A DNA stretch of 40,137 nt from Escherichia phage phiHAO1-1, in sequence record PP079211.1. One strand, 5' to 3'. Positions 22,717-23,510 of the stretch are shown piece after piece; position 1 is the stretch's first letter, and each line of letters begins with the position of its first letter. The notes under the pieces were generated by a model. That model made no database searches. It worked only from the letters and a program-made list of their open reading frames with translations, and was not told the DNA's origin. The position numbers were made by a program, and so were the translations under genes.

Positions 22717-23283
22717 ATGGCTCAGTACATTCCACTGAATGCTAACGATGACTTAGACGCCATCAACGATATGTTAGCAGCTATCGGTGAACCAGCAGTC
22801 CTACAGCTTGACGAGGGGAACGCTGACGTCTCGAACGCCCAACGTATCCTGCATCGTGTCAATCGTCAGGTCCAAGCTAAAGGATGGAACTTTAACATCA
22901 ACGAAGCTGCTGTCCTGACACCTGATGTCCAAGACAATAGGATTCGATTCTTGCCATCATACCTTCGCGTGATGACCGCTGGGGCAACCAGCTATTATAG
23001 CAACATGGGTGGATACCTGTACGACCTGTCCACTCAGTCAACCACTTTCACCGACCCTATAACGGTAGAGCTTGTTGAGATGAAACCATTCTCTGAGATG
23101 CCTGTGGTATTCAGGGACTACATCGTCACTAAAGCTAGCCGTGAGTTCAACGCTAAGTTCTTCGGTAGCCCAGAGTCAGAGCTATACCTTCGTGAGCAGG
23201 AAGCAGAACTCTATCAGCAGGTTATGGAGTACGAGATGGACACTGGTCGCTACAACATGATGTCCAACATCGGGAGGGACTAA
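22717..23283 (+). CDS. Tail tubular protein A (T7 gp11 homolog)
   Basis: 188 aa; LAAIGEPAV, VSNAQRILHRVNRQVQAKGWNFNI and YVTKASREFNAKFFGSPE parallel T7 gp11. Confidence 0.95.
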   Translation: MAQYIPLNANDDLDAINDMLAAIGEPAVLQLDEGNADVSNAQRILHRVNRQVQAKGWNFNINEAAVLTPDVQDNRIRFLPSYLRVMTAGATSYYSNMGGYLYDLSTQSTTFTDPITVELVEMKPFSEMPVVFRDYIVTKASREFNAKFFGSPESELYLREQEAELYQQVMEYEMDTGRYNMMSNIGRD

Positions 23284-23510
23284 TGGCTAGTCACAACCTG
23301 AAGATTCACCGCCAGCACTTTGGTCCGGTACAGCTAGGTCTAAAGACAGCAGAGCTGAGACTTAACGACCGGGACTTTAAGGTTGGCGATTGGCTTATCC
23401 TGAATGAGTGGGAAAACGGGTATACTGGACAACAAGTGGCTCGTAAGGTTGTCCACATTGCTGACGTTGGTGACATCGCTGAAGGATACGTCCTAATGAG
23501 TATGATTTAA
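23283..23510 (+). CDS. Small ASCH-like (DUF3850-like) protein
   Basis: 75 aa; GLKTAELRLNDRDFKVGDWLIL fits the ASCH G-x-K-x-x-E-x-R core and the pattern of E. coli YqfB; ATGA coupled to gp11. Confidence 0.65.
   Translation: MASHNLKIHRQHFGPVQLGLKTAELRLNDRDFKVGDWLILNEWENGYTGQQVARKVVHIADVGDIAEGYVLMSMI

Follow-up and report, generated by a model that had tools for sequence, protein, structure and literature searches.

In this study, we investigated the gene that lies between tail genes 11 and 12 of Escherichia phage phiHAO1-1, in a stretch of 40,137 nucleotides (record PP079211.1) that was analysed at its full length and is referred to here as the window. A megablast search assigned the window to Kayfunavirus, among the K1F-like phages of the T7 subfamily Studiervirinae, and across the gene 11/12 stretch it is 96-97% identical to vB_EcoP_F, PE3-1, TM1 and many other phages. 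A preliminary description, made from the letters of the DNA, had pointed to an open reading frame (ORF) of 75 amino acids (aa) at 23283-23510 between the two tail genes, and both its coordinates and its sequence proved to be exact. We observed that this ORF is an ASCH/DUF3850 gene of accessory status, and on both counts the result is practically certain. The features of the locus are as follows.

23283..23510, + strand: ASCH/DUF3850 gene, ATG start, 75 aa, 8.5 kDa, isoelectric point 6.4
22717..23283, + strand: gene 11, tail tubular protein A, 188 aa, 99.5% aa identity to K1F gp11
23520..25877, + strand: gene 12, tail tubular protein B, 785 aa, its first ~10 codons a hotspot of synonymous polymorphism
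23272-23278, + strand: Shine-Dalgarno sequence GGGAGGG of the ASCH gene, 4-5 nt 5' of the ATG; K1F uses the same site for gene 12
23337..23372, + strand: codons of the ASCH octapeptide G19-x-K21-x-x-E24-x-R26 and of the DUF3850-specific N28-D29-R30, a putative ligand or catalytic loop, invariant in alignments
23283..23519, + strand: presence/absence cassette of 237 bp, consisting of the 228-bp gene and a 9-nt spacer, GGAGGGCCT, which gives gene 12 a Shine-Dalgarno sequence of its own

Identity and predicted fold of the gene product

The gene encodes a product of 75 residues, MASHNLKIHRQHFGPVQLGLKTAELRLNDRDFKVGDWLILNEWENGYTGQQVARKVVHIADVGDIAEGYVLMSMI, in which the segment GLKTAELRLNDRDFKVGDWLIL is found exactly as it had been quoted before. 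The Pfam profile DUF3850 (PF12961) matches residues 4-73, that is 70 of the 75, on profile positions 2-76 of 77, with 69.5 bits and an E-value of 2.8e-19 against a gathering cut-off of 22.9 bits, and the ASCH profile (PF04266; PUA-like) also exceeds its cut-off of 21.2 bits, with 25.9 bits (E 1.7e-5). PHROGs family 986, which bears the label 'RNA-binding protein', matches the protein with an E-value of 1.3e-34; no NCBIfam family matched it, and no Rfam RNA family was found across the whole window. Among 13 distinct orthologous sequences, the ratio of nonsynonymous to synonymous substitution rates (dN/dS) was 0.13, which indicates purifying selection on the + strand frame; the structural neighbours are under a tighter one, with values of 0.026 (gene 11) and 0.059 (gene 12). 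The ORF is a genuine gene, with matches far beyond chance; both a chance ORF and an antisense gene are ruled out by the Pfam E-values and by the dN/dS of the + frame, and an antisense ORF of 56 aa at 23306-23476 has no support of any kind. Its start shares one base with the end of gene 11 in a TAATG, where the stop TAA occupies 23281-23283 and the start ATG 23283-23285, which corrects the ATGA overlap that had been proposed.

An AlphaFold2 model built with 25 homologues reached a mean predicted local distance difference test (pLDDT) score of 84.6, with a topology of one strand, one helix and four strands. When this model was searched with Foldseek, the top match was 3IUW, a DUF3850 crystal structure (TM-score 0.87, root-mean-square deviation 1.5 A), and E. 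coli YqfB (9KYF) followed with a probability of 0.99; YTH and EVE domains were also among the fold matches, and the ASCH matches were much stronger than those to tail hubs. As modelled, the protein would share the fold of 3IUW, the solved structure of the DUF3850 family, and the ASCH/PUA-like fold on which the preliminary description had staked its assignment is indeed predicted. Pfam, PHROGs and the predicted fold all bear out the ASCH/DUF3850 assignment.

The residues of the motif are strongly preserved. K21, E24, R26, N28, D29, R30, G35 and E42 are invariant in the DUF3850 alignments, while H4, K7, G19, D36, G49, Y69, V70 and S73 are nearly so, and the first six of the invariant residues remain unchanged from the orthologues to relatives of 40% identity. 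Even among distant multidomain relatives, 98 of the 101 carry GKER, and N-D-R stands just after it in 98 of the 101. The G-x-K-x-x-E-x-R core that had been read from the letters is present as G19-L-K21-T-A-E24-L-R26, following helix 1 as the ASCH octapeptide (G-x-K-x-x-E/T-x-R) does, and the protein displays the full DUF3850 signature of K-x-x-E-x-R-x-N-D-R, G-D-x-L-x-L-x-E and G-Y-V. The position Lys-9 is occupied by His, Phe, Tyr or Trp across the family; it is His12 here, with the same spacing as Phe12 of YqfB and as Tyr14 of the Thermus protein TthASCH, which together with Tyr81 makes the aromatic contacts to the nucleoside in that enzyme. Tyr69 is a candidate for the equivalent of TthASCH Tyr81, the intervening helices being missing in the 75-aa protein.

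The resemblance to YqfB that had been proposed in the preliminary description holds for the fold and for the register of the motif, but it does not extend to the nucleophile and the Glu74 insert. Catalysis of the YqfB type depends on Lys21, Thr24 as the nucleophile, Arg26 and Glu74 (PMC9599836). An hhalign comparison with YqfB, weak at a probability of 25%, aligned Lys21 and Arg26 with their YqfB counterparts and Glu24 with Thr24, and this Glu is invariant in all homologues. Moreover, the strand at residues 47-61 leads directly to the last strand at 69-74 and the protein ends at residue 75, so that the helical insert of about 30 residues that bears Glu74 is missing. With Glu in place of the Thr nucleophile and no such insert, the protein is therefore not of the YqfB type, and a GKTR enzyme is ruled out as a candidate. 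It is a minimal GKER-type ASCH domain of the DUF3850 family, in which K21, E24 and R26 stand as the octapeptide Lys/Glu dyad and the Arg of the GKER-type deacetylases.

The junction of genes 11 and 12

During distribution analysis of the gene, an alignment showed that the type phage K1F lacks exactly the 237-bp cassette, its gene 11 ending at 22939 on the same base that starts gene 12. Similarly, ZG49, BUCT788, ST1749, 216Ecol046PP, SR04 and EcoIv10b_Midid have a span of 2924 bp, without the cassette, in place of the 3161 bp of the window, yet gp11 and gp12 of the cassette-less phages are still 98-99% identical to those of the window. T7 also has no gene at this place, as had been stated before, with gene 11 ending at 24818 and gene 12 starting at 24842. 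A nucleotide search detected the gene in 161 phage records, as compared with about 200 that have a gp11 of at least 80% identity, and in 413 records with a more distant gp11 the gene is essentially never present. Overall, about 150-160 of some 200 related genomes have it at this position. The gene is dispensable and, almost certainly, an accessory gene of the 'moron' type. The conserved presence of virion and tail proteins in the T7 group is not seen for it, as it is absent from K1F, ZG49, BUCT788, ST1749, SR04, others and T7 itself, and because K1F and several others lack exactly the 237 bp, it is not a tail component. Mass spectrometry of virion bands of phage B1 yielded six proteins; the ASCH protein was not among them, but neither were gp11 and gp12, the study being too shallow in this respect.

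Within this one genus, four states of the junction were recognized, namely an empty junction, the ASCH gene alone, the ASCH gene with an endonuclease gene, and a deletion chimera of the two. These states were seen at window positions 23283-23560, in K1F (locus L025), in LI10P1 (L030, 767-919) and in yong1 (L031, 767-1446). Hafnia phage yong1 carries, after the ASCH gene, a gene for a 146-aa Endonuclease_7 protein (PF02945) that runs at its 3' end 25 nt into gene 12, and this arrangement recurs in Enterobacter phage B1 as ORF40 (75 aa) and ORF41 (158 aa). The 50-aa chimera of Kayfunavirus LI10P1 joins the first five ASCH codons (MASHN) to the C-terminus of the endonuclease, the sequence between two CACAACC microhomologies having been deleted.

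The first ten codons of gene 12 (window 23520-23570) exist in two purely synonymous alleles. Between the window and K1F, 12 differences fall in the first 51 nt of the gene, as compared with 3.3% over the rest, and no 51-nt stretch of gene 12 exceeds this count. The allele associated with the endonuclease is found in K1F, LI10P1, yong1 and some ASCH-only genomes, and this alternative allele is the one that the 3' end of the endonuclease gene overlaps. The alleles suggest a constraint from this overlap and/or a polymorphism of the homing site. With its endonuclease VII-type gene, the four-state hotspot offers a small example of how cargo is gained and lost in the structural operons of T7-like phages.

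Three further elements delimit the transcription unit.

21259..21281, + strand: promoter of the phage RNA polymerase, phi10 equivalent, consensus CTAAACTATCACTATAGGGA, upstream of gene 10, its position matching T7 phi10
22560..22604, + strand: T-phi equivalent, a strong intrinsic terminator with a 17-bp stem and a T run, separating gene 10 from gene 11
25903..25925, + strand: phi13-equivalent promoter, the downstream limit of the 11-ASCH-12 read-through unit

T7 has its T-phi at the same place as the terminator of the window. The phage promoter consensus, CTAAACTATCACTATAGG(G/A)A, occurs in 11 copies in the window, with starts at 2598, 5663, 7697, 8677, 10977, 17459, 20279, 21259, 25903, 33179 and 39436. 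A repeat family search of the window detected no copy between the T-phi-like terminator (22560-22597) and gene 13; genes 11, ASCH and 12 are therefore reached by read-through of the terminator, and from these positions they should be expressed late.

Other repeated elements were also noticed in the window. An element of about 55 nt, TAGACTCAAGGTCAT...GTGGCCTTTATGRTTA, is present in three copies (5677-5733, 13134-13179 and 37028-37084), each of them folding into a stable hairpin with an internal loop (free energy -19 to -23 kcal/mol, z about -3.5), and RNase III probably processes the transcripts at these hairpins, as it does in T7. Short repeats of ACCTACAGTCATTGAC lie near both genome ends, at 129-198 and 39956-39971, and recall the arrays beside the terminal repeats of T7-like genomes.

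Relatives in other phages and possible function

The family is extensively dispersed among phages. A tblastn search detected it in 561 phage records, and a profile search gathered 16,178 cluster representatives at 50% identity, mostly small standalone proteins. In P2, Orf91 overlaps the end of replication gene A and is followed by tin and old, and in a P2-like Vibrio phage the family member is located upstream of gene A; it adjoins a primase in Shigella phage DS8, lies between DNA polymerase and helicase in Salmonella virus VSiP, is near the single-stranded DNA-binding protein (SSB) and Holliday-junction resolvase genes in Listeria phage 293, and stands among small early genes near polynucleotide kinase in the T1-like phage SRT8. 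A Pfam scan of 112 neighbouring ORFs from 18 non-Kayfunavirus loci returned YopX, primases, dUTPase, SSB, thymidylate synthase, dGTP diphosphohydrolase, polynucleotide kinase, HNH, Dam and N6_N4 methylase, and it found no tail protein and no single conserved partner. Because the family usually accompanies genes of replication or nucleotide metabolism, the tail-gene position in Kayfunavirus is an exception, and since close relatives also lack the gene, its place in the late structural operon is no indicator of function.

Methylase genes were observed beside some of the relatives. In Enterococcus prophages (L032-L034), the family member is found in one block with YopX, a C5-methylase and a ParB-N6/N4-methylase, and in a Pragia fontium prophage (L037, 3459-4288) the start of the DUF3850 gene overlaps the end of a dam methylase gene. 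These prophages suggest that DUF3850 may be linked to DNA methylation, and the link stays a hint because methylases are near in two of the 18 loci. ParB-CTPase-DUF3850 fusions have been reported to be phage-enriched, and one of them binds CTP. Fusion partners were otherwise uninformative as a clue to function, as the 101 multidomain relatives gave only DUF551 (11 cases) and single cases of a MazG-like dATP/dGTP pyrophosphohydrolase and of helix-turn-helix domains. A literature search on DUF3850 function, and on orf91 or phage P2, found no experiments.

With reference to all these data, we tentatively favour a late, non-structural accessory protein with a base pocket that hydrolyses or binds modified cytosine; the enzymatic step within it is the less secure part and should be regarded as rather doubtful. 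The accessory gene occupies an indel hotspot that most Kayfunavirus genomes fill with it between genes 11 and 12, and its product, a single-domain, minimal ASCH/PUA-like beta-barrel as predicted, would be made late from the T-phi read-through transcript, being translated from its own strong Shine-Dalgarno sequence, possibly with coupling to gene 11. One nucleobase would be held in the pocket, as in other PUA-like domains, with Lys21-Glu24-Arg26, Asn28-Asp29-Arg30, His12 as the ring-bearing residue at Lys-9, and Tyr69 as its putative lining. The ligand may be a cytosine with an N4-acyl group or another modification, either within RNA or in the pool of nucleotides, and it would be hydrolysed or at least bound in late infection.

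Amidohydrolysis would be the most likely activity because the tested GKER-type ASCH proteins hydrolyse N4-acetylcytidine (ac4C), as nucleoside and in tRNA, with a Lys/Glu dyad. All of the 19 ASCH proteins tested in one study deacetylate ac4C; TthASCH, the GKER representative, depends on its Lys23/Glu26 dyad, and EOLA1 and TRIP4-ASCH likewise require their Lys and Glu (bioRxiv 10.64898/2026.02.27.708502). An independent preprint came to the same conclusion for human EOLA1, where the Glu is absolutely conserved in the 'TRIP4-like' clade (10.64898/2026.08.01.741249).

Several points weigh against this reading of the protein. At 75 aa, it falls 28-46 residues short of every ASCH enzyme with demonstrated activity; the Glu74 helical insert of YqfB is absent, the Tyr81 region of TthASCH, which positions free nucleosides, is probably absent too, and the motif loop (residues 21-30) has a mean pLDDT of 61, the lowest confidence in the model. 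Late expression is predicted from the promoter and terminator positions. The modified nucleoside ac4C is rare in E. coli, and its removal brings no obvious gain to a lytic phage. Again, no phage or DUF3850 protein was among the 19 ASCH proteins assayed or in the EOLA1 study, and the activity of the GKER type is not undisputed, because recombinant mouse EOLA1 had no activity on free ac4C in the hands of one group (cited in 10.64898/2026.08.01.741249).

It is conceivable, though unlikely, that the DUF3850 proteins are the smallest natural ASCH enzymes and act as phage 'erasers' of cytosine N4-acyl groups, with the ac4C34 of E. coli elongator tRNA-Met, free nucleotides, or nucleic acids acetylated by host GNAT-type toxins or defences as possible substrates. 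If this were true, phages would carry erasers to reprogramme translation or to undo an acetylation-based host defence, and this would assign a function to a family that comprises over 16,000 sequence clusters across phage genomes.

Among the other explanations, the one that survives best, although appreciably less probable than the reading we favour, is a non-catalytic reader, which would bind a modified DNA base (for example N6-methyladenine (m6A), N4-methylcytosine or 5-methylcytosine) by base flipping, in the manner of SRA, EVE and YTH domains, and would serve replication, recombination or the protection of modified DNA in place of hydrolysis. PUA-like relatives do read modified bases, YTH and EVE being among the fold matches of the model. 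ASCH domains have been predicted bioinformatically to read m6A, a prediction that stands unconfirmed (PMC11037411), and the TRIP4-like clade is associated with restriction-modification systems (PMC7641849). The dam overlap in the Pragia prophage, the C5- and ParB-N6/N4-methyltransferase genes of the Enterococcus blocks, and the occurrence of the phage-enriched ParB-CTPase-DUF3850 fusions alongside ParB-methyltransferase fusions would also suit a reader. However, same-strand methylases lie within 2.5 kb at just two of the 18 sampled loci, no methyltransferase is near the gene in Kayfunavirus, and the absolutely conserved Lys/Glu dyad is the catalytic pair of the tested ASCH enzymes.

Further down in probability, and improbable on balance, is a counter-defence factor that sequesters a cytidine-type signal or inhibitor, or erases the N-acetyl marks of host GNAT-type toxins or defences. 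In being small, standalone, patchy, and often gained or lost, the gene resembles many anti-defence genes; ASCH genes are found with GNAT-EVE and PIN-GNAT-EVE operons and with type I restriction-modification systems (PMC7641849), ASCH proteins remove acetyl groups from cytosine N4, and the paper on the ParB fold suggests an anti-defence role for the phage-enriched ParB-CTPase fusions, those with DUF3850 included. Against this, late expression and late entry into the cell would be poor timing, the PADLOC match is sub-threshold (E 0.006, 14.7 bits) with no experimental link, and the copies of other phages are in replication modules and not in recognised anti-defence islands.

Similarly low is the probability of a selfish passenger, in which the cassette rides an indel and homing hotspot, beside an endonuclease VII-type homing gene in some genomes, and brings no benefit to the phage. 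The four states of the slot, the dispensability of the gene and the synonymous hotspot in the first ten codons of gene 12, which is typical of homing-site regions, are in keeping with it; nevertheless, the dN/dS of 0.13 and the invariant motif residues show selection on the protein, the endonuclease is absent in most carriers, and the gene is kept in roughly three-quarters or more of the related genomes. Lastly, a tail assembly factor or minor virion protein working with gp11 and gp12 is highly improbable, as the gene is missing from K1F and at least seven other phages, which assemble their tails with near-identical gp11 and gp12, T7 has nothing there, homologues elsewhere lie in replication modules, the ASCH fold matches far exceed those to tail hubs, and the protein was not among the virion proteins of phage B1, where gp11 and gp12 were missed too.

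Comparison with known systems

The finding is correct but already known, as the same gene in the same slot is annotated in public phage records, and well over 100 GenBank phage records carry labels such as DUF3850, RNA-binding protein or activating signal cointegrator. The sequence feature itself is not new, and the family is in Pfam and has had its crystal structure solved. The gene is of value in that it points to a very large, phage-dominated family at a time when work of 2025-2026 finds every tested ASCH protein to be an ac4C amidohydrolase. Because near-isogenic phages exist with and without it, the Kayfunavirus gene is a natural experiment, and because a protein of 75 residues is easy to express, the biochemical question is cheap to test.

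Comparatively, the junctions of K1F and T7 have the same flanking genes, the same Shine-Dalgarno-TAATG arrangement and the same place downstream of T-phi, and the ASCH gene is present in neither; the stop of gene 11 runs straight into gene 12 in K1F, and a gap of 23 nt separates the two in T7. P2 Orf91, L-413C orf91, the retron Ec67 ORFd-like protein and the Listeria, Enterococcus, T1-like and Gordonia proteins (PHROG 986) belong to the same Pfam family with 35-60% identity, and like the Kayfunavirus gene they are small, standalone and patchily distributed. Unlike it, their genes lie in early, replication or nucleotide-metabolism modules and never between tail genes, and some of these proteins have C-terminal extensions or fusions (DUF551, ParB-CTPase).

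The protein of 3IUW is an 'activating signal cointegrator' (NP_814290) of Enterococcus faecalis V583 from structural genomics; it comes from a Gram-positive bacterial genome and not from a T7-like phage, and it adds no mechanism. E. coli YqfB (PDB 1TE7, 9KYF), an N4-acetylcytidine amidohydrolase, has GKTR where the phage protein has GKER, and its extra 30 or so residues, the helical insert with the catalytic Glu74, have no counterpart in the phage protein. On the other hand, the GKER-type proteins TthASCH (Thermus, 2DP9), human EOLA1 and the ASCH domain of TRIP4 share the G-K-E-R octapeptide with the phage protein, and the Lys/Glu pair that is essential in all three is invariant among its homologues.
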